Assembly: GCA_003345595.1 (NCBI GenBank)
Contig: PRDI01000109.1
Coordinates: 1-18,539, forward strand
Direction: 5' to 3'
DNA: 18,539 nucleotides
From: Candidatus Thorarchaeota archaeon
GTDB lineage: Archaea; Asgardarchaeota; Thorarchaeia; Thorarchaeales; Thorarchaeaceae
Part shown: positions 1,051-18,372 of the stretch, one piece after another
Position numbering within the stretch: position 1 is the stretch's first letter
Layout: every line of letters begins with the position of its first letter
Program-made: the position numbers and the translations under genes
The notes under the pieces: model-generated
What the model saw: only the letters and a program-made list of their open reading frames with translations
Databases searched by the model: none
Told to the model about the DNA's origin: nothing

Positions 1051-2623
1051 CCTGCTGCCCTGCGGCCAATTCACTCATTCTGGTTTCTACAGTGGAAACC
1101 GTTTCTTCTTTCACCTTTCCAGCGGCGGCTACCAGTTGATCTACGTCCTCACTCATCTTCTTGACGAATGCCTTGTCATGAATGTTGCCCAAGTTGATCC
1201 TGACATTCAGTGCGGCTCCTTCGACGGCTGCAAACAGGGCGAACGCCGCCACGCCGGCGTCAGTTATCGCATTTATGTTGCCCTTCTCTGCAACAGTTCT
1301 CGCCGCTTCAAGTGCCTTAAGTGAGTGCTGTATTGTTGTCAGGGGCACCTCTGAAGCATGCTTTGTCGCCGCCTCGACTTGCTCCGCCTTCTTCCTCTTT
1401 TCTATGTCAGTCCCCTCAGGCATCCTGATGGCCGTCATGACATCCTCGAAGGCAGCTGAGTCCTTCTCTACAAGGTCCATGAGAATCCCGCGGTCAGTTT
1501 CAGCTGTGTGCCTTAGACCTGTCATTTCATCCTTGATGGCTGCGAACTTGCGTCCCGACAGAGACAGGCCCGAAACCATGCAGACCAAGCCAGCTCCGTA
1601 TGATCCCATGAGTGCCGCTACGCTGCCGCCACCAGGAGTAGCATGAGCTCGCCTGACTTCATCGCCGAACTCTATGAGCGACATCTCTGTGAACGTCTTC
1701 TCAGTCGGCTCATTTGCTCCTGCTAGGTAGTAGAGGTCGAGAATCATCGACTCGTCGAGCTTGTCCACCTGTAGGTAGTACTTGACCGCATCAATCAACG
1801 CAAACAAGGGAACCATGCCCACAATCTCGGTTTCAACGACAGAGGCGCCGTAGCGACGTGCCTCGTTTCGTACAACCTCAAGAGCCTGATGCATTCGAGT
1901 GCGTCCAGGGTTGGTCAGGTTCATGGATATCTGAGTCATCCCCCTTTCGGGGAGTTCAATGCCCATCGCTTGAATGTTGACGAGCCCGCCAGTGGTCGCA
2001 CGGACGGCATCAGCACATGCTTTTGCTGCACGCAAGTCCGTGGTGTTCAAATCGGCATTGAAGGCAATCAAGAAGTTGCGGGCGCCGGTGGCAGTACAGC
2101 CTGCAGTAGGGTGAATCTTCTTTGGACCGTAGTCGGGATCCTTAGCTGGGTCCTTCCCGATGAGTTGTCTCAGGCCTTCGAATTCACCCTCTCGTATGTT
2201 GGGCAGTTCGACACGCTCAGGACGAGTCGCAGACTTGGCGTACAGGTAGACGGGAACGTTGCACGCACGAGAGAACTCCTCTCCAAACTCCTTGGAGAGC
2301 TCGATGCACTCACCAATGGTGACACCATGTAGAGGGATAAAGGGAACAACATCGACAGCGCCCATGCGGGGATGTGCACCCTTGTGCCGAGTCAGATCAA
2401 TCTTCTGTACTGCCAGCTTACTGGCCTTGAGGACTGCCTCCTTGACCTTCTGAGGTTCACCAATGAGTGTGAACACTGACCTGTTGTGATCGTGATCGTA
2501 CTCAAGGTCTAGAAGCTTAACTCCCTCAACACTGCGTATTGCATCGGCAAGGGCGTCAATGACCTCCTGTCGCCTGCCTTCGCTGAAGTTTGGAACACTC
2601 TCTACAATCTTCACGTCCGTCAC
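1040..2623 (-). CDS. ftcD: Bifunctional glutamate formimidoyltransferase / formimidoyltetrahydrofolate cyclodeaminase (fused FTCD)
   Basis: N-terminal VESVPNFSEGRR, DHNRSV, HPRMGAVDVVPF, GAR and QISMNL motifs (FT domain); C-terminal TPGGGSVAA, D..AF, GNINAITDAG and NVRINL motifs (cyclodeaminase domain). GTG start. Confidence 0.95.
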   Translation of the reverse strand: MTDVKIVESVPNFSEGRRQEVIDALADAIRSVEGVKLLDLEYDHDHNRSVFTLIGEPQKVKEAVLKASKLAVQKIDLTRHKGAHPRMGAVDVVPFIPLHGVTIGECIELSKEFGEEFSRACNVPVYLYAKSATRPERVELPNIREGEFEGLRQLIGKDPAKDPDYGPKKIHPTAGCTATGARNFLIAFNADLNTTDLRAAKACADAVRATTGGLVNIQAMGIELPERGMTQISMNLTNPGRTRMHQALEVVRNEARRYGASVVETEIVGMVPLFALIDAVKYYLQVDKLDESMILDLYYLAGANEPTEKTFTEMSLIEFGDEVRRAHATPGGGSVAALMGSYGAGLVCMVSGLSLSGRKFAAIKDEMTGLRHTAETDRGILMDLVEKDSAAFEDVMTAIRMPEGTDIEKRKKAEQVEAATKHASEVPLTTIQHSLKALEAARTVAEKGNINAITDAGVAAFALFAAVEGAALNVRINLGNIHDKAFVKKMSEDVDQLVAAAGKVKEETVSTVETRMSELAAGQQAIP

Positions 2624-2691
2624 TGATGCCAGATTCTGCTGGAACTGGCAAAAAAGGTTTGGGCAAGAAACAGTGTGCTAGACCGAGAGGC

Positions 2692-3627
2692 TTAGCTGCT
2701 GTAAGTCCCCAGATCGATGGCATCCCCTGTCAGCACGTTGGCCATGGCCTTGTCGAAGGCGTACGCGGAGAGCACGTTCTTGAGAAGCATCGTTATGGTC
2801 ATGGGACCCACCCCACCCGGAACGGGAGTTATGTATGACACTTTGCACTTTAGAGCCTCAGTGTCACAATCACCATTGGGCGTTGCGACGTCGATGACGA
2901 TTGCACCCTCTTTGACCATGTCGGCGGTAATAAAGAATGGATCTTCTTTTGACTTGCGGCGACCAATCGCAGTGACAAGAATGTCAGCCTGTCTGGTAAA
3001 CGATGGCAGGTCTCGGGTCTTCGAGTGACACACTGTGACAGTCAGGTCTCTGTTCAGAAGCATCATCACCAGAGGCTTCCCTACGATTGTCGATCGGTTG
3101 ACAATCACTGCGTGTTTGCCCTGAAGTGGAACTCCGAGATGATCTAATATCGTGGCAATTCCCTGAGGGGTTGCTGCACCAAGCAACTCACTGCCATAGA
3201 ACAGCCTGTAGATGTTGGTCGGCGAGAATCCATCGACGTCCTTTGTGGGCTCGACTGCGCTGATAATCCTCTCTTCACTAATGTGCTTGGGCAGCGGAAG
3301 CTGGACTAAGATGCCGGAAACTGATACGTCGTGGTTCAACGTGTGAATAAGATCTATCAACTGGTCTTCTGTGGTATTGTCTGGAAGGTTGTACTGACCT
3401 GAGGCTATCCCTACGCGCGCACAGGCCTTATGTTTCATTCTGACATACATGGTAGAGCCCGGGTCTTCCCCCACTTGCACCGTGACCAGCTTCGGGGGAG
3501 CCCCGTAGGCCTCAGTCAGCCGAGCGACCTCGCGCGCAATCTCTTCCTCTATGTGCCCAGCCAGCTTCTTGCCGCTGATCACGCGATCGTCACAGAAAGT
3601 GCTTGGAGTAGCCTCCATCGTAGTCAT
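2692..3627 (-). CDS. folD: Methylenetetrahydrofolate dehydrogenase/cyclohydrolase
   Basis: YVRMK (YxxxK), GILVQLPLP, KDVDG, RSTIVGKP, CHSKT and TPVPGGVGPMT motifs. The start could instead be the ATG at 3618. Confidence 0.95.
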   Translation of the reverse strand: MTTMEATPSTFCDDRVISGKKLAGHIEEEIAREVARLTEAYGAPPKLVTVQVGEDPGSTMYVRMKHKACARVGIASGQYNLPDNTTEDQLIDLIHTLNHDVSVSGILVQLPLPKHISEERIISAVEPTKDVDGFSPTNIYRLFYGSELLGAATPQGIATILDHLGVPLQGKHAVIVNRSTIVGKPLVMMLLNRDLTVTVCHSKTRDLPSFTRQADILVTAIGRRKSKEDPFFITADMVKEGAIVIDVATPNGDCDTEALKCKVSYITPVPGGVGPMTITMLLKNVLSAYAFDKAMANVLTGDAIDLGTYSS

Positions 3628-3642
3628 TCAAACACCACCGGT

Positions 3643-5241
3643 CTAGAACACACCAAAGATGTTGTTTTTCTCATCTAGCCCCATGCCCACAGCTGCTGGT
3701 TCCTTCGGTAACCCAGGCATGAGCATGATGTCACCCATGTAGACGACAACGAACCCTGCTCCCGCGCTCACGTCAACACCACGTACAGAAACGTCGAACC
3801 CCGTCGGTCTGCCAAGGAGCTTGGGATTGTCGGACAGACTGAACTGCGTTTTGGCAACGCATACGGGCAGCTTACCGTACCCGCGTTTCTCCAGTGACCT
3901 GATGTCAGACTCAGCATCTTCAGCATACGTGACTCCCCGAGCACCATAGACCTTTGTCGCCAGTTTACTGACCTTTGTCTTCAGATCGTCCTCGAGTTCG
4001 TATACGTAGGTAAGCTTGCTTTTCTGGCCAACGACTTCGATGATGTCAGCTGCTAGTTCCTTGCCACCTTCACTCCCCTTTGCGTAGACCTCGGAAACCT
4101 CCATCTTCCATCCACGCTTTGAGCAGAAGGCCTTCAATGCGGATATCTGTTCGGGAGTGTCGCTCGGGAACCTGTTCAGTGCAATGACAGCTGGCAGTCC
4201 GAAGGCACGCACGTTTTCCACGTGTTTCTCAAGATTCGGAAAACCCTTCTCAAGCACACCCTCGCCGTGGTTCATGAGTGCCCTGATTGATGTGACAACG
4301 ACGACTGCGTCTACTTTGAACCCACCTATCCTTGTCACTATATCGACGAACTTCTCAGCTCCAAGATCTGCTCCAAAGCCAGCCTCGACGACTACATAGT
4401 CGAACAATCTCAGAGCGATATCGATAGCTGTCACGGAGTTGGTACCGTGTGCGATATTGGCGAATGGACCTGCATGGATCAGAGCAGGGGTTCCTTCGGA
4501 CGTCTGGACCAAGTTAGGCATTAGTGCGTCCCGCAGGAGCACGCTCATCGCACCTTCAGCCTTAAGGTCGCTAGCATGAACCTCCTCAAGCTTCATGGTA
4601 CGTCCGACAAGGACTCGACCAAGGCGTGCCTTGAGGTCTTCGTAACTTGTCGCCAGAGCAAGAATGGCCATAATCTCAGAGGCAGCAGTTATCACGAATG
4701 AGTCCTCGCGCGGAAAGCCATTCGCTTTCCCACCGAGGCCAACAGCTATCTTCCTGAGGGCTCTATCGTTCATGTCGATGGTCCGAGGCCAGTAGACTCT
4801 TCGAATATCTATGTTCAGCTGATTGCCCTGGTGAATGTGATTGTCAATCATGGCAGAAAGCAGATTGTGTGCGGCAGACACAGCAGGAAAGTCCGAAGTA
4901 AACAGCAGGTTGATCTTCTCGAAAGGCAAGACCTGAGCCTTGCCGCCTCCAGCGGCTCCGCCCTTCACGCCAAAGACAGGACCAAGTGACGGCTCTCTTA
5001 TTGTGACAACTGCCTTGCGACCCATAGCGTTGAGAGCCATTGACAGACCAATCGCATTCGTGGTCTTGCCCTCTCCTGCAGGTGTGGGAGTGGTCGCAGT
5101 GACGAGGATCAGTCTTCCCTTTCTCTCTCCTAGCACCTTCTTGATTCCTAGGTCAATCTTGGCCATATACTTGCCGTATGGTTCCAGAAACTCGGAAGGT
5201 ATGCCTGCTTTCTCAGCCACTTCTGCAATGGGAATCATCAT
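3643..5241 (-). CDS. fhs: Formate--tetrahydrofolate ligase
   Basis: TPTPAGEGKTT, REPSLGPVFGVKGGAAGGG, HAGPFANIAHG, EAGFGADLGAEKF, AKTQFSLSD and MPGLP motifs. Confidence 0.97.
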   Translation of the reverse strand: MMIPIAEVAEKAGIPSEFLEPYGKYMAKIDLGIKKVLGERKGRLILVTATTPTPAGEGKTTNAIGLSMALNAMGRKAVVTIREPSLGPVFGVKGGAAGGGKAQVLPFEKINLLFTSDFPAVSAAHNLLSAMIDNHIHQGNQLNIDIRRVYWPRTIDMNDRALRKIAVGLGGKANGFPREDSFVITAASEIMAILALATSYEDLKARLGRVLVGRTMKLEEVHASDLKAEGAMSVLLRDALMPNLVQTSEGTPALIHAGPFANIAHGTNSVTAIDIALRLFDYVVVEAGFGADLGAEKFVDIVTRIGGFKVDAVVVVTSIRALMNHGEGVLEKGFPNLEKHVENVRAFGLPAVIALNRFPSDTPEQISALKAFCSKRGWKMEVSEVYAKGSEGGKELAADIIEVVGQKSKLTYVYELEDDLKTKVSKLATKVYGARGVTYAEDAESDIRSLEKRGYGKLPVCVAKTQFSLSDNPKLLGRPTGFDVSVRGVDVSAGAGFVVVYMGDIMLMPGLPKEPAAVGMGLDEKNNIFGVF

Positions 5242-5368: not shown

Positions 5369-6676
5369 ATGGACAGGACACCGCTCGAAGCACTACCGGA
5401 TGCACTCCCTGACGGGATAGAACTTGAGAAGTATATAGTCGGGACCTACTATGTAGGACTTCCGCCGATGCTCGATGCAAGGCAGCTGGCGTGGGGCGCA
5501 GCTGTGGAGCAGAGCACCGGAACATGGATTCCTGTTCCCGGTGAAACCGTCGACGTCCGAAAGAGGCACATTGCCAAAGTGATTGGGGTCTTCGAGGTTC
5601 CGTACTATGAGTACAGTACGCCCAAGGATCTAGAAAGGCGCGAATATGTAATCCAGGTCGCCTTTCCATGGGCGAACTTCGGAGCACAGATTCCCATGAT
5701 GCTCAGCACTGTAGTGGGCAACATAAGCATGGGAGGACGTATCAAGTGTCTTGACCTGCGCTTCCCGAAGAGCTTCCTGAAGTCATTCAAGGGACCAAAG
5801 TTCGGAATCAGCGGCCTGCGAAAACTGACCGGAGTGAAAGACCGTCCATTCTTGAACAACATGATCAAACCATGCGTGTATACCTCTGCAAAGATGGGTG
5901 CAGGCCTCTTCTATGAGGCCGCTGCAGGCGGAGCGGACATAATCAAGGACGATGAACTTCTCGCTAACCCAGAGTACAACAGCTTGGCTGAGCGTGTGCC
6001 ATTGTTCATGGAAGCCGCTGACAGGGCCAATGCGGAGAAGAATGAGAAGACCCTCTATACCGCGAACATAACTGACAGCATAACCAGACTCTTTGAGAAC
6101 GCCGAGAAGGCGCAGGAGTGGGGAGCCAATGCTCTGATGGTCAACTTCCTCGCTGTGGGCTATTCTGCATTCCAAGCAGTCTGCGAGGACCCGTCAACGA
6201 AGGTGCCTGTGCTGGCACATATGGACATCGCAGGCGCGCTGTATGAATCGCCGATTACAGGCATTGCCTCGAACCTAGTCATCGGGAAGCTGCCAAGAAT
6301 CTGCGGTGCCGATATCACTGTCTTTCCGGCCCCATATGGGAAAGCCCCTATACTCAAGGAGAGATACCTCGGTATGGCCCATGAGATGGTCATGCCGCTG
6401 CTCCACATCGAGCAGACAGCTCCAATGCCCAGCGGCGGTATTTCCCCAGGCATGGTAGAGGAAGTGATGGAAGACCTGGGTCCCGACATTGTAATCGGGT
6501 CGGGCGGGGGAATACATGCACACCCTAAGGGACCACGCGCTGGTGCGACGGCCTTCAGACAGGCGATTGAAGCGAAGATGAAGGGCATCCCTGTCAGCCA
6601 GTATGCAAGTGAACATGAGGAACTCAAAATCGCCATGGAGTCATGGGGTGCCGGCAGGACTGGATTCGAGCTGTAG
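5369..6676 (+). CDS. RuBisCO-like protein (form IV, RLP)
   Basis: EQSTGTW, FKGPKFGI, IKDDE, PMPSGG and GSGGGIHAHP motifs. The carboxylase residues K177, R295 and H327 (form I numbering) appear substituted (IKPC, AHMD, ITVFP). Confidence 0.9.
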   Translation: MDRTPLEALPDALPDGIELEKYIVGTYYVGLPPMLDARQLAWGAAVEQSTGTWIPVPGETVDVRKRHIAKVIGVFEVPYYEYSTPKDLERREYVIQVAFPWANFGAQIPMMLSTVVGNISMGGRIKCLDLRFPKSFLKSFKGPKFGISGLRKLTGVKDRPFLNNMIKPCVYTSAKMGAGLFYEAAAGGADIIKDDELLANPEYNSLAERVPLFMEAADRANAEKNEKTLYTANITDSITRLFENAEKAQEWGANALMVNFLAVGYSAFQAVCEDPSTKVPVLAHMDIAGALYESPITGIASNLVIGKLPRICGADITVFPAPYGKAPILKERYLGMAHEMVMPLLHIEQTAPMPSGGISPGMVEEVMEDLGPDIVIGSGGGIHAHPKGPRAGATAFRQAIEAKMKGIPVSQYASEHEELKIAMESWGAGRTGFEL

Positions 6677-6729
6677 TCCACGCTAGCGACTGACCAAAGA
6701 TTATGATACGATATCTGAGGCGAATAGTC

Positions 6730-7731
6730 ATGAGTACCGCAAAGAAAATGGATGACGAGATAGTCGATTGGCTCCTTGAGGAAGAGAATCCAAGTGTGCG
6801 GTTCTGGGCCCTGCAGCAGCTTCGAGGGAAGAAAGGGACTGATGCAGAGGTCATAGCGGCTCAACGTGCGATCATGCAGTCAGACTGTGTCAAGGCAATC
6901 CTAAAGGCTCAGAGGCCGGAGGGGCACTGGGAAAACAGGGAGAGCTTCTATCTACCGAAGTACATAGCGAGTACCCACAATCTGCTGATTCTCGCAGAGC
7001 TTGGTGCTGAAGCTACTACTGCCATAAGACGCGGAGTGGAGCATGTGTTCCTGTTCCAGCGCGATTCGGGTCATTTCTTGATCAACATCCCAAAGACAGA
7101 GAAAGGCAAAGCGAGTACGATGACAGATGGGTGTTGCATTGACGGCAACATACTGTACTACCTGCTCCACTTCGGCTATCTTGAAGACGCTCACACAAAG
7201 AGGCTCATCCAGTTCCTTGTTAACGATCATTCGAAAGATTACGGATGGCGATGCAGGTCCTATCCAATTGACAGGAACAGAGTCTTTCCAGTCAACTGCT
7301 ACATGGGAGCTGTAAAAGCCCTCAAGGGTCTGTCCATGATTCCCAAGAAAGACCGATCCGCTGAAGTCAGTTATGTCATCCAAGCAGAAACAGAGTCTAT
7401 CCTCTCTAACCAAGTGTACAAGTATCTTCGTGGGCCAAAGGGCGAGAGGAAGGAGAAGGCAGGATGGAAGCGTTTTGGTTTTCCTCTGTTCTATCAATCG
7501 GACGTTCTTGAAGTGCTGGACGTGCTGACTGGGCTGGGCGCACATGATGAAAGGATGTCTGATGCCGTCGAACTTGTGGAGAAGGCTCGAGGGCCTGACG
7601 GAAAATGGGCACTCAAGAACACCTTCAATGGCAAAATGCTGTGCAACATTGATACGAAGAACCAGCCATCGAAGTGGGTGACTCTCAGGGCCGTGCGAGT
7701 TCTGAAGAGATGGTATCAGGAACATGGCTAG
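6730..7731 (+). CDS. Uncharacterised (alpha/alpha)-toroid protein with prenyltransferase/squalene-cyclase-like repeats
   Basis: Repeated QW-like motifs (ILKAQRPEGHW, LFQRDSGHF, KDYGWRC, KARGPDGKW), plus FGFPLFYQSDVLEVL and a C-terminal PSKWVTLRA. ATG 6730 preferred over 6703. Confidence 0.65.
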   Translation: MSTAKKMDDEIVDWLLEEENPSVRFWALQQLRGKKGTDAEVIAAQRAIMQSDCVKAILKAQRPEGHWENRESFYLPKYIASTHNLLILAELGAEATTAIRRGVEHVFLFQRDSGHFLINIPKTEKGKASTMTDGCCIDGNILYYLLHFGYLEDAHTKRLIQFLVNDHSKDYGWRCRSYPIDRNRVFPVNCYMGAVKALKGLSMIPKKDRSAEVSYVIQAETESILSNQVYKYLRGPKGERKEKAGWKRFGFPLFYQSDVLEVLDVLTGLGAHDERMSDAVELVEKARGPDGKWALKNTFNGKMLCNIDTKNQPSKWVTLRAVRVLKRWYQEHG

Positions 7732-7824
7732 CCTTGGAAAACGTGCGCGGTACGTCTAGTATGTTGTGCACCCAAGTCCATCAGAGTTAATACTTAGAAA
7801 GCATCTAGTAAGCAATCGTTGCCT

Positions 7825-7830
7825 AGGAGG
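7825..7830 (+). promoter_or_regulatory. Shine-Dalgarno site
   Basis: AGGAGG 8 nt upstream of ATG 7839. Confidence 0.65.
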
Positions 7831-7838
7831 AACTGACG

Positions 7839-9206
7839 ATGAAGCTCAAGCCTGTCACTCTTACAGAACAAGAGATTGAAGACATGATATCCGATATCAC
7901 CGACGAGGAGGCCAAAGAGGCAGAGGAGCACTCGCTCACGCCGCTGAAAGACAAGATCCTCTTTGAGGGTGAACCCGGTGGAGCTGTCGTGAAAGACACC
8001 AAGGGCAACGAGTACATAGATTGTACGTCTCAGGCATGGACTCTGAATATCGGCTTCTGTGACCCCGACATCGCGTTCGTTGTGGCCCGCCAGATGCAGC
8101 GTCTTTCACACGTCAGATACGGATTCCCAACTGTTCCCAGGTTGAAGCTGCTGAACGAGATCACGAAGCTATTCAAGATGCCGCGGGCGAGCTTCAACAA
8201 CATGGGCGGAGGAGCCTCAGTTGAGGCGGCCATGAAAATAGCATTGTTGCGGAAGAAGGATGCCGACACATTCATCACGGCATGGCGTGCTTACCATGGT
8301 TCCTCGCTCGCGACGACAAGTGCCAGCGCATACATGCCCACAGCAACTCGTTTTCTCGGCTTCGGGAGAGAGCACTTTGTAAAGATTCCTTATCCATACT
8401 GCTACAGATGCTACCTTGGCCATGACAGGGAGAAAGAAGACTGCACAGGAGTATGCGCGGAGTTTGTCAAACAGACCATCATGCACGGCGTCACGGGTCC
8501 TGTAGCAGGGATAATCGTCGAGCCAATCATGGGACCCGGTGGACATATCGAAGCACATACCGAATACCTGAAGGCGCTCAAGGAGATTTGTGAACAGATA
8601 GATGCACTGCTCATTTTCGACGAGGCACAGACTGCCTTCGGTAGAGTAGGTGAGTGGTGTGCATCTGACCTTCACAACATGCGTCCTGATGTCATGTGCT
8701 TGACCAAGGGAATTGCCGGCGGTGTCCCGATGGGTGCAACTCTCACACGTGGTGACATAGTGGGGTTTACTGAGTCTGAGGAACACTCGACGTTCGGGTC
8801 TAACCCGGTCATGTTCGCGGCATCTCTTGTCAATATAGAGATCATTAAGCGTAAGAACCTCCTGCAGAGGAGCAAGCTGCTCGGTGAGAAAATCAAGGAC
8901 GGAATTCTCGAGCTCCAGGAGAAGTACCCAGTCATCGGGGACGTTCGATGCCCGGGGCTATACAAGGGGATTGAGCTTGTCGAAGATCCTAAGTCGAAGA
9001 GGCCAGGGGTCGAGATGGCACATGCATTCATCCAGGAGGGATGGAAGCGCGGGGTCATCTTCGACTACAACATGCCAAACCTATCCCCATGGGGCTATGA
9101 CCTTCGCAATGTAATCAAGATTAAGCCACCTCTCACGATTACGGAGGAACAGGTGGACAAGGTACTTGAAGTGTTCGAGGAATGCCTGCAGGAAGTCACG
9201 AAGTGA
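7839..9206 (+). CDS. Class III PLP-dependent aminotransferase (GabT/ArgD-like)
   Basis: DTKGNEYID, AYHGSS, IIVEPIMG, LIFDEAQTAFGR, DVMCLTKGIAGG (PLP lysine), HSTFGSNP and IKIKPPL motifs. Confidence 0.9.
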   Translation: MKLKPVTLTEQEIEDMISDITDEEAKEAEEHSLTPLKDKILFEGEPGGAVVKDTKGNEYIDCTSQAWTLNIGFCDPDIAFVVARQMQRLSHVRYGFPTVPRLKLLNEITKLFKMPRASFNNMGGGASVEAAMKIALLRKKDADTFITAWRAYHGSSLATTSASAYMPTATRFLGFGREHFVKIPYPYCYRCYLGHDREKEDCTGVCAEFVKQTIMHGVTGPVAGIIVEPIMGPGGHIEAHTEYLKALKEICEQIDALLIFDEAQTAFGRVGEWCASDLHNMRPDVMCLTKGIAGGVPMGATLTRGDIVGFTESEEHSTFGSNPVMFAASLVNIEIIKRKNLLQRSKLLGEKIKDGILELQEKYPVIGDVRCPGLYKGIELVEDPKSKRPGVEMAHAFIQEGWKRGVIFDYNMPNLSPWGYDLRNVIKIKPPLTITEEQVDKVLEVFEECLQEVTK

Positions 9207-9242: not shown

Positions 9243-10364
9243 CTACTCAACCTTCACCAGCCGTATCTCACCATAGTCACTGATGACTCTCATGTAGCCT
9301 CTGAGCATTTGATCCACGGAGGGGTCACCGGTGTCGACCTTCAGTGATTCGCCCTCAATCCCCCTAAGCTTCGAAACCGTGCATAGAACTCGTATATGGT
9401 CTCTGCCTGCTCTCTCAATCACTCTCGGGCTTATCTGTTGGTTTCCTCTGCCGAACAAGACTCCTTGGTGACCTATCGGGGAAACAATGATCCACACATT
9501 GCTGAACTCCTCTACGGAGTCAAGAATCCTAGACTCATTCACGTCGTTCTGTACTGTACCATTCTGGTACAGGTCTACACCTAGTGTGGTCTTCTTCACT
9601 CCAAGGAGCCCTGCGAGCGTCTTGACAGTCGTTCCCGGACCTAAAATGAGGGTCGCCCCCTTCGGAAGCGTTTCGAGAACGTACCTCGCGATAGCTTCCT
9701 GTGCCTCGTGCTCATCTGTGGTTTCTGCGCTAATCTGCTTGGAGCCCTGAAATCGTGCAGGCACTGATGGGCCCCTCAGATAGCCGTACAGACGTACGAC
9801 GAACTTGTCCTGCCTAATGGCCTCCTCGTCAGCGTCCATCACCTCAAACTCTGTGGTTCCCGTGTTACCTTCGCGCATCACCCTGATGACCTCGGCAGCA
9901 TCTCGCGGATTCACAACGAAGATGCCGCTGTACATCTTGACCCCCGATGGCACGCCTAGGACCATCAGGTCGGCAAGGTCGCCTTGGGTGACGGCATCAA
10001 GAATGTCGCGAGCAGTGCCATCTCCTCCCACGAAGACAAGAAGACGTACGCCCGAGTTGTATAATGCCTTCACGCAACGTACCGTGTCTTCAGAGGCGGT
10101 TTCTATTCCAATGGCCACATCAACCACGTCGTGCTTGACGTCTGCTTGTCGACAAACACCCGCCCCCATCGGTCCAGGGCAAGCTGTCAGGCTGATATCA
10201 GGAACCCTCAACGACTTCAGCGCATCCAGGAACTCTCGGGCGCGCCGCGGGGCAACTGGCTTTGCCCCTCTTTTGATTGCCTCTCTGACCACGCCGTCAG
10301 TTCCCTTCAGCCCTACGCGGCCACCCATGCCGGCAATCGGGTTCACAAGCAGGCCGACATTCAT
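9243..10364 (-). CDS. ATP-NAD kinase family protein (COG3199-like)
   Basis: NPIAGMGGRVGLKGTDG, GGDGTARD, GVPSGVKMYSG, GPGTT, TLGVD, GRGNQQ and DTGD motifs. Confidence 0.85.
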   Translation of the reverse strand: MNVGLLVNPIAGMGGRVGLKGTDGVVREAIKRGAKPVAPRRAREFLDALKSLRVPDISLTACPGPMGAGVCRQADVKHDVVDVAIGIETASEDTVRCVKALYNSGVRLLVFVGGDGTARDILDAVTQGDLADLMVLGVPSGVKMYSGIFVVNPRDAAEVIRVMREGNTGTTEFEVMDADEEAIRQDKFVVRLYGYLRGPSVPARFQGSKQISAETTDEHEAQEAIARYVLETLPKGATLILGPGTTVKTLAGLLGVKKTTLGVDLYQNGTVQNDVNESRILDSVEEFSNVWIIVSPIGHQGVLFGRGNQQISPRVIERAGRDHIRVLCTVSKLRGIEGESLKVDTGDPSVDQMLRGYMRVISDYGEIRLVKVE

Positions 10365-10432: not shown

Positions 10433-11014
10433 CTATTTCAAAGCACGGACTTCTGCCGCTGTTTGAAACCAGAAAGCGACCCTGAACAGGACTTCCTCCA
10501 AGAGGCGAGGTCTGTTGTCGGGGGTAGCATCTTCGGGCCACTTGTGGCGCCTGTAGTCGTCAAACTTGTCGAATGTCTTGCCATACTTCGTCGTGAGAGG
10601 CGTTTCCACCTTTCTGTCGCAGACCGTGACAAGAGCACGAACGAGAGTGGTGAAATCGAAGTCCAGACGAAGCAACCAGTCGCGAACAGCTTTGAAGAAC
10701 CTCGTCTGTTCAGTCTTGTCCCAAGGTAGACTCTTGACAGCATCTCGGTCCCGCGCGTCGACTCGGTCACTGTTGAAACTGCAGCTCTTGTCGTAGGTGC
10801 AGCGAGCCCTCACAAGCACGTCTTGCTTTGATAGCCACACAGCAAGTTCATGATTGCCCTTCTTCGATAGGGCCACCTTGTGATCTCCAGCTGGAAAGAT
10901 GACCTCGACAACGCCTACGTCCTTCTGACGTAGTCCCTGCTTGAAGTAGAGGTCAAGGGCCCACGCAATCGGAGGCAGGACGTTTGCTGCGTAGTACTCG
11001 TCAGGCTTAGTCAT
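10433..11014 (-). CDS. Hypothetical protein (193 aa)
   Basis: Fills the gap between the GTPase and the kinase on the same strand and has protein-like composition; no motif recognised. Confidence 0.7.
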   Translation of the reverse strand: MTKPDEYYAANVLPPIAWALDLYFKQGLRQKDVGVVEVIFPAGDHKVALSKKGNHELAVWLSKQDVLVRARCTYDKSCSFNSDRVDARDRDAVKSLPWDKTEQTRFFKAVRDWLLRLDFDFTTLVRALVTVCDRKVETPLTTKYGKTFDKFDDYRRHKWPEDATPDNRPRLLEEVLFRVAFWFQTAAEVRALK

Positions 11015-11094: not shown

Positions 11095-11655
11095 TCACTG
11101 GACTTCCCACTGGCCGCCTTCCTCACGTTGTTCAACTAGGGTCTTCCCGAGCTGCTCGAATATGTCAATGACCCCCTCTCCGGTCTTTGCAGAAGACTCA
11201 ACATAGGGCATTCGGCGCTTGTCTGCAAACTCCCTGCCTTCCGCGGGTGTCACGACACGGTCTGGAAGGTCTGTCTTGTTTGCCACGAGGACAAGTGGTA
11301 TGTCCTTGTTTATGGCCTTGCGAAGCTCATCTAGCCACTCCTGTAGGACGATGAATGTGCGACGTCGGGTCACGTCGAAAACCAGTATTCCTCCACTGGC
11401 GCCTCGGTAGTACATGGGTCGAAGGATCTGAAAACGCGACTGACCAGCCACATCCCAAATCTGGAGCTTGACCGTAAGCCTCCGTCCCTCGCTCGCTTTG
11501 ATGTCAATGTTCTTGACGGCGAACTGAGAGCCAATTGTGGTCTTGTAGTCAGTCCTGAAGAAGCCATGTGAGAATCGGGTCACGATTGCAGTCTTGCCAA
11601 CAGCACCCTCGCCCAACACAACTACTTTGTACAGTCGGTCATACGTACTGCTCAT
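11095..11655 (-). CDS. Rab-like small GTPase (Ras superfamily)
   Basis: G1 GEGAVGKT, G2 TIG, G3 WDVAGQ, G4 NKTD and G5 SAK; RabF-like motifs IGSQF, KLQIW, RFQIL, YYRGA and LVFDVT; no C-terminal Cys. Confidence 0.93.
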   Translation of the reverse strand: MSSTYDRLYKVVVLGEGAVGKTAIVTRFSHGFFRTDYKTTIGSQFAVKNIDIKASEGRRLTVKLQIWDVAGQSRFQILRPMYYRGASGGILVFDVTRRRTFIVLQEWLDELRKAINKDIPLVLVANKTDLPDRVVTPAEGREFADKRRMPYVESSAKTGEGVIDIFEQLGKTLVEQREEGGQWEVQ

Positions 11656-12567: not shown

Positions 12568-12698
12568 AGACCCACATCCCAGTGATGCTTCACCATCGGT
12601 GAATGTGGTCATATATCCCTATGCCACTGACGATTAGCCAGAAGTGGGTAGGCAACTTTTTCTTTCGTGCCTCATATGCGATGGTCGGGGTCACTCTC

Positions 12699-14075
12699 AT
12701 GGCAAAGCTGTTCGGAACCACAGGAATCAGAAAAGTATACGGAACAGAGTTTGACCTTGAAATGGCCCTGAATCTTGGGAAAGCCTTGGGCACATATCTG
12801 ACAGGCGGAAATGCTGTCTTAGCTGAGGACGTTCGAACCACGAGCCGCATGGTGGCCGATTCATTGTCCGCAGGCCTTCTTTCAACGGGCACCATAGTGA
12901 CTAGGGCGGGAATGCTGCCGACACCCACGCTCGCATTCACGACAATGACGCGCGGGTTCGATGTCGGTGTCATGATTACGGCGTCACACAATCCGCCCGA
13001 GTATACAGGTGTGAAATTCTGGTCCAAGAACAGCATGGGATACACGCCCGAGGAAGAATCGACAATCGAAGGAATCTACAGCTCGCACAAGTTCAGGGTG
13101 GCAGCTTGGGACCAGCTAGGCAGTGAGAAGACCGTAGAAACGTGTGTGGCGGAACACATTGAAGCGGTGATATCAAGGTGCGATGCCGAGGCAATCCGGA
13201 GGAGGGCTGCGAAGGTCATAATCGATCCTGGCAATGGAGCCTCCTGCGTGTTGACACCATACTTGCTGGGAAATCTTGGATGCAAGGTGATCACGGTCAA
13301 TGGTCAGCCAGATGGGCATTTCCCAGGCCGAGTTTCAGAGCCTGACGATGAAAACCTTGGAGACCTCAAACGCATGGTCAAGGAAACGGGTGCGGACTTG
13401 GGTGTGGCGCACGATGGTGACTCTGATAGGGTCGTATTTGTGACAGAAGCGGGACAGGTTGTGAGGGGTGACAGGACCATTGCTCTCTTGGCGGCTGAGG
13501 CACTGAAGGCGTCAACCAACAAGACCGTTGTGACCACAGTGGACAGCTCTCGAGTGCTTGATGAAACCGTAGAAAGAGCGGGAGGGCGGACAATCAGGAC
13601 TCCTGTTGGTGATATACAGGTGGCTATGAAGGTGAGAGAAACTGGAGCACTACTAGGCGGCGAAGCGTGCGGTGTTTTTATCTTCCCTGAGTTTCATCTT
13701 GCCCCAGAACCGTTTCTGGCCGCTTGCAAAGTGTTGGAGCTCATTGCGCGCAAGAACCAGAGCTTCGGCGAAATCATCCGAGCGATACCCGAGTACCCAC
13801 TGTCCAAGACGAAGCTCGACTGCCGAAACGACTTGAAGACGCATGTCATGGCGGCTCTTAGAGAGAGTCTCCCTGCAGCATTCACCAATGTCGCCGACGT
13901 TGTAACAGTTGACGGACTCGGCATTTCGCTGAAACAGGGCTGGGTCTTGGTCAGACCCTCTGGTACTGAACCAGTGATCAGAATTACATGCGAAGGCCCA
14001 ACGCGCCAGAGAGTGCAGACCATTATGAGAAAGGCCAAGGCCGTTGTAACAGCAGAGATTCAGACAGCAGGCTGA
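12699..14075 (+). CDS. glmM: Phosphoglucosamine mutase / phosphohexomutase
   Basis: KLFGTTGIR, TASHNP (phospho-Ser), DGDSDR (metal loop), GGEACG and VRPSGTEP motifs. GlmM versus PMM/PGM specificity is not resolvable by eye. Confidence 0.75.
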   Translation: MAKLFGTTGIRKVYGTEFDLEMALNLGKALGTYLTGGNAVLAEDVRTTSRMVADSLSAGLLSTGTIVTRAGMLPTPTLAFTTMTRGFDVGVMITASHNPPEYTGVKFWSKNSMGYTPEEESTIEGIYSSHKFRVAAWDQLGSEKTVETCVAEHIEAVISRCDAEAIRRRAAKVIIDPGNGASCVLTPYLLGNLGCKVITVNGQPDGHFPGRVSEPDDENLGDLKRMVKETGADLGVAHDGDSDRVVFVTEAGQVVRGDRTIALLAAEALKASTNKTVVTTVDSSRVLDETVERAGGRTIRTPVGDIQVAMKVRETGALLGGEACGVFIFPEFHLAPEPFLAACKVLELIARKNQSFGEIIRAIPEYPLSKTKLDCRNDLKTHVMAALRESLPAAFTNVADVVTVDGLGISLKQGWVLVRPSGTEPVIRITCEGPTRQRVQTIMRKAKAVVTAEIQTAG

Positions 14076-14234: not shown

Positions 14235-14660
14235 ATGCCTAAAGAGAAAGACGAATTGGGAATCATGGATGACTTCGAGTGGGCGCTAAAGGACCCCAGT
14301 GAAGAGAAGCTACGCGAACTGGGAACGGTCGTTTCTACTGTCACCATGAAGCTTGTTGCCGCAATCTCCGATCTTCAGACTGCTCTGTCTGATGTTCAAA
14401 CCAAGCTTGGGGCCCTTGATTCCCGCGTTAGCCAACTGGACAGCAGGATGGCAAGCGGCAGAACCGCAGGATCCTCAGCCGGGCTCGAAATGGGAGCATC
14501 CGGTGCCGCTGCTTCGCCAGGCATTGCTAGGGCACCCATAGCCAAGGCCCCAACTCCAGCGCCAGCTGCCGGAGGAGGCGGAGGTCTCATGGGTGAACTC
14601 AAGTCATTACTGTCTGCAAGGAGAAGGAAGACAGACACCGGCCCCGAGGGCACTGGGTAG
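14235..14660 (+). CDS. Coiled-coil protein with Ala/Pro-rich linker and C-terminal Ena/VASP FAB/WH2-like helix
   Basis: Heptad pattern ISDLQTALSDVQTKLGALDSRVSQLDSRM; linker RAPIAKAPTPAPAA; C-terminal GGGGGLMGELKSLLSARRRK. Confidence 0.7.
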   Translation: MPKEKDELGIMDDFEWALKDPSEEKLRELGTVVSTVTMKLVAAISDLQTALSDVQTKLGALDSRVSQLDSRMASGRTAGSSAGLEMGASGAAASPGIARAPIAKAPTPAPAAGGGGGLMGELKSLLSARRRKTDTGPEGTG

Positions 14661-14672
14661 TTCCAGAACAGC

Positions 14673-15341
14673 CTAGATGAGCGTCTTGACAGCGTTCATG
14701 GTATAGAACGGACCTGCATGAGTCGGAAGCGATAGAGTGAAAGCTTCTGCTCTTTCGCAACCTGCTTGGATGCCGCGCAGACGAGTCCTGGCATCATAGA
14801 ACCTCAGGTAGAACGCGTCAGCCTTTGTCAGCTGTGATTTGTGTTCCTTGAGGGCACTCACTGCGGTGGAGAAAGACTCAGAAACGTCCATCAAGACGTG
14901 AGGCTGTGAATGGAGGCTGTTGATCTCCATGCCATAGATCCTGTTCACCCGATAGGCGTTCTCAAAGGTTGTTGTATGTGACGCCCATTCAATAGCATCC
15001 GCCACCAGCTGAGCACACTGAACGTGATTTCGATTGTAGTCATCTCCAGAGTGGGTGATGACCGCTGATGGCCTAGACTTCAGGATTGTCTGAACAATCT
15101 CCTTTCCCAATGACCAGTCGACCGCGAAATCGTCACGTGTGTTTGTGTACACCTCTCTAACTCCCAGCAGGCGGCAAGCTGCCCGCATCTCTCTGTTTCG
15201 GGTGTCGTTCCCCGTCAGAGCAAGGACATCCACACTGACACCTTGATCCACATGTCGCCTGATAGTGCCGCCAGCTCCTAGGCATTCGTCATCAGGGTGC
15301 GCCACTATCACAAGAATGGAGTCCTGAGGAGGGCCTGTCAT
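14673..15341 (-). CDS. bshB: PIG-L family N-acetylglucosaminyl deacetylase, BshB-like
   Basis: VIVAHPDDE Zn motif, TRNRE, ITH..D...H, HKSQ and AEAF motifs; divergent from bshA. ATG 15341 preferred over TTG 15371. Confidence 0.8.
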   Translation of the reverse strand: MTGPPQDSILVIVAHPDDECLGAGGTIRRHVDQGVSVDVLALTGNDTRNREMRAACRLLGVREVYTNTRDDFAVDWSLGKEIVQTILKSRPSAVITHSGDDYNRNHVQCAQLVADAIEWASHTTTFENAYRVNRIYGMEINSLHSQPHVLMDVSESFSTAVSALKEHKSQLTKADAFYLRFYDARTRLRGIQAGCERAEAFTLSLPTHAGPFYTMNAVKTLI

Positions 15342-15458
15342 ACGCTCGCCGAGGAGTATCTGTCTAATCAACGTTTGGACAGAACTGACGCCAGCCTGAC
15401 TGACCCTACCAGTTCACTTAAAGGGACAGAGCAGTACGCGGCTGTTGAGTGAACCACA

Positions 15459-16622
15459 ATGCGGATTGGCGTCAACCTCTATCCTGGCGTTGGAGGCTCC
15501 GGGCATTTGGCGACAAGATTGGGTGAACATCTTGCCCAGAGAGGACACACTATCCACTTCATTACTTATCAGCGGCCCTTCGCTCTGATGTGGGAGCAGT
15601 ACAGAGGAATCTACGTCGATCTTGTTGACAGGTTCGACTATCCTCTTTTCAGTGAAATAGGACCTCCGTACGCGATGGCCTTGACCTCAAAGATCTTGAA
15701 GGTGAAGAACGACGCGAATCTCGACCTGCTTCACGCGCATTATGCGATTCCGCACGCCATGGCAGGATACATGGCACGAGAGATATCCGGTCTGCCATAC
15801 CTCGTCACTCTTCATGGATCAGACGCGCATACACTCGGGCCAGACCCGGCCTACAAGCCGGTCGTAAAGTTCACGGTAGAGAAGGCAAACGCAGTGACCG
15901 CAGTGTCTCAGTTTCTGCAGAAGACGGCGTACGAGCGGCTCGGCATTGAGAGGGAGATACACGTCGTGCCAAACTTCATCGACACAAAGCAGTTTCAGCC
16001 ACTTGACAGCTGCAGGCTGACTGTGGAAGGTGGCTGCGTTGGCATGAAAAGGGGAGAGGATGCTAAAACCATTGACCCTGAAGAGAAAGTGCTACTACAC
16101 ATCTCCAACTTCAGGGAGGTCAAACGTGTGACCGACCTTATCGAGATAATGCGGATTGTGGTCAATGAGATTCCCAACTCCCGTCTCATAATCGTAGGGG
16201 ATGGACCCGAACGCATTGAGGTGGAGAGGAGAATCGAGAAGCTCAATCTATGCAATAACGTCCATCTGCTTGGCGTCAGAACAAGCATGCAGGAGATATT
16301 CTGTGGAACAGACGCGTTTCTCCTCAACTCCAAAGTGGAAGGCATGCCGCTGGTATTGCTTGAGGCCATGGCATGTGGCGTGCCAGTGGTCACGACTCCC
16401 GCTGGTGGCGTTCCAGAGCTCGTACGTCCAGGTGTCGATGGCGTTGTGACAAAGGGATTTGAGCACGATGAGTTTGCAAAAGCGGTGATAGACATTCTCG
16501 AGAAGGATAGCCTCAGGAAGACTCTCGCAAAGGCAGGACGGAAACGAGTCGTTGAGAGCTTCTCTTCAGAGAGAATAGTACCAATGTATGAGAAGGTGTT
16601 CGAGGAGGCAGTTGCCACCTAA
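15459..16622 (+). CDS. bshA: N-acetyl-alpha-D-glucosaminyl L-malate synthase (GT4)
   Basis: BshA-typical YPGVGGSG, HFITY, YPLF, LLHAHYAIPHA, TLHGSD, VTAVS and HISNFREVKR motifs. Confidence 0.9.
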   Translation: MRIGVNLYPGVGGSGHLATRLGEHLAQRGHTIHFITYQRPFALMWEQYRGIYVDLVDRFDYPLFSEIGPPYAMALTSKILKVKNDANLDLLHAHYAIPHAMAGYMAREISGLPYLVTLHGSDAHTLGPDPAYKPVVKFTVEKANAVTAVSQFLQKTAYERLGIEREIHVVPNFIDTKQFQPLDSCRLTVEGGCVGMKRGEDAKTIDPEEKVLLHISNFREVKRVTDLIEIMRIVVNEIPNSRLIIVGDGPERIEVERRIEKLNLCNNVHLLGVRTSMQEIFCGTDAFLLNSKVEGMPLVLLEAMACGVPVVTTPAGGVPELVRPGVDGVVTKGFEHDEFAKAVIDILEKDSLRKTLAKAGRKRVVESFSSERIVPMYEKVFEEAVAT

Positions 16623-16628
16623 GGAGGT
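16621..16628 (+). promoter_or_regulatory. Shine-Dalgarno site overlapping the bshA stop codon
   Basis: TAAGGAGGT; AAGGAGGT ends 10 nt before ATG 16639. Confidence 0.6.
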
Positions 16629-16638
16629 TCTTGAGAAC

Positions 16639-18372
16639 ATGGACCTCAGTATTTCAGAGGTCTACCAGGCGTTTGTCTGGAAAGGCGAAAACGCTGAACT
16701 TGCTAAGGATCTCTACGACACCCCGGTTGAAACTATCGGGGGTGTCACTGACAGAGCGACGAGGCTAATCGCCGCCTACAAAACCGCAGCGTGGCACAGC
16801 GCCGAACGTATTGAAACCATTGCTAGAACTCTAACACATGTATGCGGCGAGATTGGATGCTACACGCCTAGAGTCAGGGAATCCATCGAGCGCTTGGGTG
16901 CTGGAGTCGTGGAGGCATCTCACCAGAGCGTAGTGATGGGCGGGCCCGTCTACATTCTGAACAAGGCAGCCACGGCCAGACGGGTTGCCACACTCGCTCA
17001 CGAAAGGGGTCTGGACCTGTCGCCCGTCTTCTTTATCGCAGACTATGACATGGTCCAAGCGGAACTCACAAACATCAGAACGCCTGTTCCTGGTCAGGAC
17101 GGGAACCTGGTCAGCGTGCCAGTCCCCGAGGGATACGAGCATTCGCCTGTGAGCAGACTCCCGTTGCCTGGATACGACTGGTACTCTAGGACTGAGGACA
17201 GCATTCGAGCAGGCTATAGGCCGCTGTTCAAGTCGATGGGAGCTCTGCACAGGAGTATGTTCGACGAGCGGCTTGAACAATGCCTAGCCCTGACTCGCTC
17301 CACCTATGTCAATTCACGCACACTTGGCGACTGGGCAATGAAGATACTTGCGAGACTGTTCAACATCGAACAGGATCTCGGGATACCGCTTGTACCAGCG
17401 TCTGATCTCTCAGTGAGAGAGCTGCTCGTCACGGGAATGGAGCTCCTTCTCAGTCGAACAGCCCGGACGAGATTCATTAAGGCACATAATGCGGCTTCAG
17501 AAGCCGCCAGAAAGGGGGGCTTCAAGCCGGGGATGAGTCCCAGGGATTCACGGTACGTACCATTCTATTATGAGTGCACCAATGCGACCTGTCACTCGAG
17601 TCGGACTGAGCTTCAGTATGAGGATCAGGGGTCAAAGGCAACAATAACAGGAAAGTGCCCATCTTGTGGTGAAGATATCGAGATAGAAACCTCGGCTGAC
17701 AAACCTGACCTCAAAGAGTTCGCTGCGAACTTGTCGCCCCGCGTGGATTCAAGGCAGATCATTGTAGACACAATGTTGCCTGTGCTGATACACATAGGTG
17801 GCATTGGAGAAACGGCGTACTATGCGCAAGTGATACCAGCCGCAAGAGCATTGTCAGTCCCATTCCCACTGTTTGTGCGCTATCCTCGTGTGTACTTCAA
17901 CACTCCATGGAATGAACAACTGGCATTGAGTCTGAAGAGAAACAACATCCCTGTGCTTCATTCACCAGGTCTGTTCGCTCTTGTTGGCAAAATCGGCAGG
18001 TCTGCAAAGAAGGGCAAGCCGGAAGAGCTGAATGATGCAGTATGGGAACTCATGCGCCTGATAACGGACACCAGACGAGCCTTGGATCAAGAACTCGCGA
18101 GAATCAAGGAGGCAGTTCCCAAGGCGGCAGGCGAAGAGGCAAAACGACTCCTAACGCTCAAGCTCGACCTTGAGCGCTACCTCAGCTGGGTCTTCGGCGA
18201 GTATGCAGAAGAGAAGGCAGGACAGGAAACGGCATGGTCTTGGATTGAATGGGCTGTGAACTCGAGTTTTCACGATTTGTTCGGCCCGTACGAGCGTGCT
18301 TACACTGGAGCTATGAAGAACGGCGCAACGATGTTCGTGAACTTCACTGTTCCGGAAGAACCTTCGAACTAA
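16639..18372 (+). CDS. bshC: Divergent BshC-like putative cysteine-adding enzyme
   Basis: HQSVVMGGPVYILNKA (cf. GQQ..LFTGPLYTIYK), PVFFIADYD (cf. PVFWIAGEDHD), SPRVDSR...LP...IGGIGETAYYAQ (cf. SPNVVLRP...LP...GGPGEIAYWAQ), a C-terminal coiled coil, and position directly after bshA. Confidence 0.8.
   Translation: MDLSISEVYQAFVWKGENAELAKDLYDTPVETIGGVTDRATRLIAAYKTAAWHSAERIETIARTLTHVCGEIGCYTPRVRESIERLGAGVVEASHQSVVMGGPVYILNKAATARRVATLAHERGLDLSPVFFIADYDMVQAELTNIRTPVPGQDGNLVSVPVPEGYEHSPVSRLPLPGYDWYSRTEDSIRAGYRPLFKSMGALHRSMFDERLEQCLALTRSTYVNSRTLGDWAMKILARLFNIEQDLGIPLVPASDLSVRELLVTGMELLLSRTARTRFIKAHNAASEAARKGGFKPGMSPRDSRYVPFYYECTNATCHSSRTELQYEDQGSKATITGKCPSCGEDIEIETSADKPDLKEFAANLSPRVDSRQIIVDTMLPVLIHIGGIGETAYYAQVIPAARALSVPFPLFVRYPRVYFNTPWNEQLALSLKRNNIPVLHSPGLFALVGKIGRSAKKGKPEELNDAVWELMRLITDTRRALDQELARIKEAVPKAAGEEAKRLLTLKLDLERYLSWVFGEYAEEKAGQETAWSWIEWAVNSSFHDLFGPYERAYTGAMKNGATMFVNFTVPEEPSN

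Follow-up and report, generated by a model that had tools for sequence, protein, structure and literature searches.

Gene content of the locus

The stretch of DNA analysed here (the window) is contig C109 (PRDI01000109.1) over its whole length of 18,539 bp. It belongs to a metagenome-assembled genome (MAG) of Candidatus Thorarchaeota (GCA_003345595.1, here G000), which comprises 2.73 Mb in 129 contigs and is 83% complete. Towards its 3′ end, the window carries three neighbouring genes related to those for the synthesis of bacillithiol (BSH) in bacteria. A bshB-like gene of the PIG-L/LmbE N-deacetylase family (14673..15341, minus strand) lies divergent from the glycosyltransferase gene bshA (15459..16622, plus strand), which is closely followed by a bshC-like gene (16639..18372, plus strand). 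This arrangement had been proposed in an original prediction made from the DNA letters alone, and it was borne out for all three open reading frames (ORFs), both in position and in family (an equivalog-level match for BshA, PF02585 for the deacetylase, PF10079 for the third gene).

BshA (387 amino acids) is a retaining glycosyltransferase of family GT4 and the predicted N-acetylglucosaminyl L-malate synthase of the cluster. It scores 384.7 bits against TIGR03999, which is 111 bits above the equivalog cut-off of 273.7, and the next-best family reaches 134 bits. The protein has the two-domain architecture of GT4 enzymes (PF13439 and PF00534), and its best matches in the PDB are solved BshA structures (2jjm/3mbo, 5d00, 6n1x and 6d9t; E values from 1e-78 to 1e-67). 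The donor-binding and catalytic residues H118, N171, K209, E280 and E288 (Staphylococcus aureus numbering; PMC10361700) are kept, with T120 replaced by Ser. Among 120 orthologues, both glutamates of the EX7E motif are present without exception, and the motifs LHGSD, (I/V)PNF(I/V)D and SNFRxVK are each retained in 115–118 sequences.

The bshB-like reading frame is open up to a TTG at 15371 (14673-15371, minus strand). Its start is most likely the ATG at 15341, since orthologues begin with MTG or MSG, and the resulting protein of 222 amino acids is predicted to convert N-acetylglucosaminyl-malate (GlcNAc-malate) to glucosaminyl-malate (GlcN-malate). It matches PF02585 (PIG-L) with 71.8 bits (gathering score 28.2), and its nearest solved relatives are the BshB1 structures 2ixd and 6p2t. 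All aligned sequences keep AHPDDE as well as the His that ends the second motif, and with them the His/Asp/His zinc ligands and the Asp acting as general base. The bshB-like gene is the sole PIG-L gene in three near-complete Thorarchaeota genomes (G022, G013 and G014), and hence the only candidate there for the deacetylation step. Between bshB and bshA lie 117 nt (15342..15458), read directly from the sequence, which presumably form a shared promoter region; a TTAAAG element is found about 35 nt upstream of bshA.

The bshC reading frame is open from 16588 (16588-18372, plus strand). As orthologues align from residue 18–21, the most likely start codon is that of M18 (nt 16639), 16 nt past the bshA stop and not overlapping bshA; this gives a protein of 577 amino acids with a predicted role in the addition of cysteine to GlcN-malate. 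It matches PF10079 (Rossmann-like_BshC) with 63.9 bits at a gathering score of 27. A single-sequence phmmer search against the PDB returned no match; a profile of 18 homologues (alignment A1) found Bacillus subtilis BshC (4wbd) with E = 1.3e-16 over the Rossmann-like core. The AlphaFold2 model built on A1 (predicted local distance difference test, pLDDT, 90; predicted template modelling score 0.90) displays the fold of BshC, i.e. a Rossmann-like core with insertion subdomains and a C-terminal helical coiled-coil domain, with long helices at residues 443–519. The top match of this model in Foldseek is again 4wbd over the full length (E = 2.1e-18, template modelling (TM) score 0.66/0.70, 610 columns, 15% identity), followed by class I lysyl-tRNA synthetase 1irx (E = 7e-8) and other class I aminoacyl-tRNA synthetases. 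By profile and predicted fold, the protein is thus a member of the Pfam BshC family that stands outside the characterised equivalog group, and the original assignment of the third gene to BshC has both a profile and a structural match behind it.

Many tblastn matches of the bshC-like protein appeared to contain internal stop codons. Recoding was considered and rejected as the reason: the alignments overrun the natural stop into the longer C-terminus of the query.

Archaeal provenance of the cluster

The window is short (18.5 kb), the MAG is fragmented and incomplete, and BSH is elsewhere a bacterial trait, all of which would be in keeping with a bacterial origin of the cluster, through mis-binning or a chimeric join in an archaeal assembly. 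However, the GC content is even along the contig (0.50–0.55), and the same contig encodes an archaeal-type phosphoglucosamine mutase (glmM, 12603..14075, plus strand; TIGR03990 Arch_GlmM, 518.6 bits against a cut-off of 439) and a Ras/Rab-like small GTPase of the Ras family (PF00071, 168 bits; 11095-11655, minus strand), an Asgard eukaryotic-signature protein that serves as a taxonomic marker. The bshC-like protein is present in 24/24 genomes of the same family, and a scan of named genomes with this query gave 59 loci, all of them Asgard and nearly all labelled Thorarchaeota or Promethearchaeota; the closed chromosome CP070761.1 is one of them, and others are on contigs of 0.2–0.47 Mb. The gene order α/β-hydrolase (−), glmM (+), orf141 (+), bshB (−), bshA (+), bshC (+) recurs in about 40 named Thorarchaeota records, CP070761.1 among them, which is essentially every record with enough flanking sequence. 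The cluster and its neighbours are thus found in named Thorarchaeota records that include contigs of 0.2–3.2 Mb. Even GC content, archaeal GlmM, Ras GTPase and recurrent gene order establish the contig as native Thorarchaeota, and mis-binning is effectively refuted. The source had originally been taken for a probable Asgard archaeon, which the named-genome scan narrows to Thorarchaeota.

As a conserved neighbour of the cluster, glmM is located directly upstream in nearly every Thorarchaeota locus with sufficient flank. An ORF of 141 amino acids (orf141; 14235-14660, plus strand) with no match in Pfam or NCBIfam separates glmM from the 3′ end of bshB; its position is conserved in nearly all Thorarchaeota loci, at 37–94% identity.

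Distribution across Asgard genomes

A phylogenetic profile was computed over 301 sampled Asgard genomes, using PF10079 for BshC and a threshold of E<=1e-60 for BshA. PF10079 was matched in 156 genomes and BshA was found in 140, in 134 of them over the cut-off. By family (labelled here by number), BshA and BshC are present in 69/76 and 69/76 genomes of f1, 27/28 and 27/28 of f5, 16/19 and 17/19 of f12, 11/11 and 10/11 of f14, 1/1 and 1/1 of f18, 1/7 and 1/7 of f20, 1/1 and 1/1 of f25, 3/3 and 3/3 of f26, 10/11 and 10/11 of f27, and 0/68 and 1/68 of f9. Most other families contain neither protein; f22, f24 and f29 display weak BshC-only matches with no BshA. The two genes are adjacent in four Asgard families, which beyond Thorarchaeota are f5, f12 and f14, with differing orientations. 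At family level the two profiles agree, and such co-occurrence is the very logic by which bshC was originally found in bacteria (PMC5790435).

Family f27 likewise carries adjacent bshA, bshB and bshC genes in an Asgard host, yet in a cluster of canonical type (L084 8287-11675 and L085 5730-9118). In contrast to the Thorarchaeota-type (Thor-type) arrangement, all three genes are co-directional in the order bshC-bshB-bshA, the deacetylase retains the HPDH motif, and BshC (265–280 bits against PF10079) is devoid of the four-cysteine element described below and nests among canonical, presumably bacterial BshC proteins in the tree. This suggests a separate origin of the f27 cluster, probably by acquisition from bacteria. 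Since it differs from the Thor-type cluster in these respects, the bsh cluster exists in no fewer than two forms among Asgard archaea.

One further locus, on the closed Thorarchaeota chromosome CP070658.1 (L067, 3685-7395; same genome as G242), contains BshC-like residues 125–588 inside an open frame of 1237 amino acids. Neither bshA nor bshB is found nearby, and the genome has no BshA at E<=1e-60. This looks like what is left of bshC, or a fusion of it, after loss of the pathway in this lineage.

An archaeal branch of BshC with a Cys4 element

The bshC-like protein bears a zinc-ribbon-like Cys4 element (C313, C318, C340 and C343 in M18 numbering; nt 17575..17667, plus strand) on two β-hairpins of an insertion subdomain. 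In alignment A1, C313 and C340 are invariant, and C318 and C343 are conserved in at least 90% of sequences. The cysteines sit at the hairpin turns of the model (strands 309–312, 322–330, 333–339 and 346–352; pLDDT 93–97), and the stretch of B. subtilis BshC that aligns with them contains no Cys.

An exhaustive search of 1.84 billion representatives returned 47 proteins at E<1e-30, with 25–56% identity and mostly 540–590 amino acids long; beyond these, scores fall to about 1e-10, where canonical BshC proteins (about 540 amino acids) start. In a FastTree phylogeny with midpoint rooting, in which the representatives carry no taxon labels and which is silent on the direction of transfer and on age, all 46 Thor-type sequences (f1, f5, f12, f14 and representatives) form a single clade with a support of 0.95 and a stem of 0.47. 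This supports a Thor-type BshC clade separate from canonical BshC. The Cys4 element appears to have been lost in a sub-clade that contains f5 and f14. Two more distant members of the clade are encoded on archaeal-looking contigs, one with LSM and Arf/Ras GTPase genes, the other with an archaeal Pilin_N gene and a geranylgeranyl reductase gene.

Proposed pathway and alternative explanations

Gene identities, folds, synteny, archaeal provenance and the co-occurrence of BshA and BshC are observations; all substrates and the product in the scheme below are assigned by homology. We hypothesize that the cluster makes bacillithiol or a close analogue, i.e. a bacillithiol-type low-molecular-weight thiol, and consider this the probable function. 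GlmM would provide glucosamine-1-phosphate, which feeds the route to UDP-N-acetylglucosamine (UDP-GlcNAc), the donor for BshA. BshA would transfer N-acetylglucosamine (GlcNAc) from UDP-GlcNAc onto L-malate, the acceptor predicted from the bacterial pathway. Deacetylation by the PIG-L enzyme would then yield GlcN-malate. In the last step, the BshC-like protein, with its class I aminoacyl-tRNA synthetase-like Rossmann core and coiled-coil tail, would join cysteine to the amine set free, and the product would be Cys-GlcN-malate (bacillithiol) or an analogue very close to it.

Several findings weigh against this proposal. The best NCBIfam match of the deacetylase is BshB1 (TIGR04001), at 87.1 bits under a cut-off of 182.5, so that it is not an equivalog member. 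The BshC-like protein likewise scores 60.1 bits against the NCBIfam BshC equivalog TIGR03998, whose cut-off is 265.8, and its core motifs, (A/G)(H/Q)Q...GGP...NK, (D)YD..Q.E and GPGE.AYY, are recognisable in altered form. The Cys4 insert occurs in 17 of the 28 full-length Thor-type representatives versus none of 79 canonical ones. In the deacetylase, alignment to BC1534 (2ixd) places DYNRNH (15024..15041, minus strand) where PIG-L enzymes have D(R/Y)HPDH; the zinc-ligand His is retained, and the catalytic His and Asp are both replaced by Asn. NxNH instead of HPDH is found in 40 of 41 Thorarchaeota BshB sequences (the other one has NRAH), while f12 and f27 have HPDH. Moreover, no reconstitution of the BshC reaction in vitro has ever been achieved, even with bacterial enzymes (PMC5790435), so that homology cannot fix the chemistry of this step. 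In no archaeon has BSH itself ever been detected (PMC7278568).

A further point of this kind concerns the donor site of BshA. Alignment to Bacillus anthracis BshA displays EGMP (E294-P297; 16338..16349, plus strand) where bacterial BshA has ESFG. In S. aureus BshA, GlcNAc is held by contacts with this ESFG motif, S281 reaching the acetyl group and the backbone of G283 reaching O3/O4, and the motif is described as "highly conserved in BshA enzymes" (PMC10361700). EGMP is present in 120/120 Thorarchaeota orthologues; f12 has EGAP, and f5 and f14 have ESFG. In the GT4 capsule polymerase NmW, Pro versus Gly at the fourth position of the motif switches between the use of UDP-Gal and UDP-Glc (PMC10361700). 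Taken together with the NxNH deacetylase and the separate, Cys4-bearing BshC-like clade, this may suggest a variant product, either with another hexosamine (e.g. galactosamine in place of glucosamine), with another group attached by the BshC-like protein, or with another acceptor acid. However, BshA clears its equivalog cut-off by a wide margin with the other donor residues retained, an archaeal GlmM encoded next to the cluster is in line with GlcNAc as the donor sugar, the Pro/Gly analogy comes from one unrelated GT4 enzyme, and the motif changes could be neutral and leave the reaction unchanged. We regard a variant product as unlikely, though a serious alternative.

Partner enzymes of the predicted thiol were searched for in G000 and in four Thorarchaeota genomes of 97–98% completeness (G022, G012, G013 and G014), in which positive controls responded. 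In these five genomes the bacillithiol disulfide reductase Bdr/YpdA (TIGR04018) was not found (best score 88 bits, cut-off 340), the matches being generic thioredoxin-reductase-like flavoproteins only, and neither BrxA/B (PF06491) nor BrxC (TIGR04019) gave a match; these negative results, too, weigh against the proposal. A GCS2-type γ-glutamylcysteine ligase was not found in the five genomes either, which counts in its favour. The role as redox and detoxification buffer that was originally proposed is hence left without its known partners. The thiol would probably be used without the recycling by Brx and Bdr known from Firmicutes. It may buffer metals or electrophiles via DinB-type transferases, or be reduced by a generic thioredoxin-reductase-like flavoprotein.

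Three of the five genomes contain DinB_2 proteins, a distribution that is patchy and uninformative. G000 contains three DinB_2-domain genes (C114:17050-17969 and C90:4578-4916), two of which are adjacent and divergent; they could be thiol S-transferases using the product of the cluster.

Transfer of a sugar by a GT4 enzyme followed by PIG-L deacetylation is the logic of the first two steps in glycosylphosphatidylinositol (GPI)-anchor and mycothiol synthesis alike. With the BshB-like and BshC-like proteins below their equivalog cut-offs and the BSH-dependent redox enzymes not found in the five genomes, one may ask whether the first two enzymes make a glucosamine glycoconjugate instead of a thiol, such as a GlcN-lipid resembling GPI, a precursor for surface glycans or a solute in the form of GlcN-malate, with the BshC-like protein serving an unrelated function. 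This appears improbable: the glycosyltransferase is specifically BshA (385 bits versus 134 for the next-best family), the third gene with its BshC fold shares both genomes and loci with bshA across nine Asgard families, and in the cluster neither membrane segments nor genes related to lipids came to notice.

Synthesis of bacillithiol or a close analogue therefore stands as the best reading of the locus, as originally proposed, and nothing testable was found to refute it. It is qualified by a BshB and a BshC below equivalog level and by changed motifs in all three enzymes. A more far-reaching version, to which we would give a small chance, holds that Thor-type BshC is ancient and archaea-specific, and that its Cys4 element may dock a macromolecular donor of activated cysteine, either a carrier protein or a tRNA in its charged form. 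Given also the changes in BshA and BshB and a system without Brx and Bdr, this would mean that a bacillithiol analogue is made and used by a chemistry other than the bacterial one. If so, the Thor-type system could be where the BshC reaction is finally reconstituted.

Comparison with known thiol systems

The bacterial BshA-BshB1/B2-BshC systems of B. subtilis, B. anthracis as well as S. aureus, known also from Deinococcus-Thermus and Chlorobi, bring together the three enzyme families found here in a single neighbourhood. The Thorarchaeota cluster resembles them in its equivalog-level BshA, its deacetylase nearest to BshB1, the 4wbd fold of its BshC and the co-occurrence of BshA and BshC. It differs in its archaeal host, in a BshC that is only about 15% identical to 4wbd, belongs to a separate clade and carries Cys4, in NxNH for HPDH and EGMP for ESFG, and in that no Bdr/YpdA, BrxA/B or BrxC was found. 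Furthermore, it is linked to archaeal glmM, whereas the B. subtilis genes are linked to mgsA and panBCD.

Mycothiol synthesis by MshA, MshB and MshC in Actinobacteria follows the same logic, namely GlcNAc transfer by a GT4 enzyme, deacetylation by a PIG-L/LmbE enzyme and addition of cysteine by a class I aminoacyl-tRNA synthetase-like enzyme. However, the models for MshA, MshB and Mca score only 61, 34 and 28 bits on the proteins of the window, and MshC (3c8z) is a weak fold match to the BshC-like model (E = 0.03, TM 0.24). Lysyl-tRNA synthetase 1irx, the second-best fold match, has the Rossmann core in common with the model, but the TM score is 0.34–0.38 and there is no match to the anticodon-binding domain.

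Relation to previous reports

Neither the presence of bsh genes in archaea nor the prediction of BSH is new; both were published and annotated before. Rawat and Maupin-Furlow (2020, PMC7278568) listed 39 hits in archaea for BshA and as many for BshC from InterPro, mostly in Asgard, with only two hits for YpdA, and suggested BSH synthesis. A 2021 preprint on Asgard viruses describes BshA as "prevalent in Asgards", and the annotation by NCBI PGAP and JGI names dozens of Thorarchaeota orthologues BshA. The expectation that homologues may already be annotated was thus correct. On the other hand, a 2025 BLAST survey of RefSeq with C. tepidum queries at E<=1e-20 reported that no archaea contain the pathway (PMC12719100). 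The archaeal pathway was probably overlooked there because BshB and BshC of the Thor type are divergent and because RefSeq leaves out MAGs.

Added here are the Cys4 clade of BshC, the NxNH form of BshB, the EGMP form of BshA, the co-occurrence of BshA and BshC, the f27 cluster and the recycling enzymes not found. That the cluster exists is not where the value of the dataset lies; it lies in these differences at enzyme level and in the recycling partners that are missing. The BshC reaction has withstood reconstitution for 15 years, and zinc-ribbon BshC makes another, independent form of the enzyme available. Should a bacillithiol-type thiol be made by Thorarchaeota and by roughly half of the Asgard genomes sampled, a major redox cofactor regarded as bacterial would reach the archaeal lineage closest to eukaryotes. 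This would bear on the handling of oxidants, electrophiles and metals by relatives of the eukaryotic ancestor before glutathione, and it would correct the 2025 survey.

Neighbouring genes

In longer Thorarchaeota loci, no extra pathway partner was found 3′ of bshC, where only housekeeping genes (a convergent class I/II aminotransferase gene and an OMP decarboxylase gene) and an ORF without family are located. Upstream of glmM, the window contains an ORF of 193 amino acids without family match (10433-11014, minus strand) and a NAD kinase-like gene (9243-10364, minus strand) with weak domain scores of 53.6 and 50.6 bits. A tetrahydrofolate C1 block (1040-5241, minus strand) comprises formiminotransferase-cyclodeaminase (FTCD), FolD and formate-tetrahydrofolate ligase (FTHFS) in series. 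Next to it, at 5369-9206 on the plus strand, a RuBisCO-like protein, whose best match is an MtnW-type enolase (346 bits, below the cut-off of 409), is followed by an ORF of 342 amino acids without family and a class III aminotransferase; this run may be a salvage module for sulfur compounds or sugar acids.

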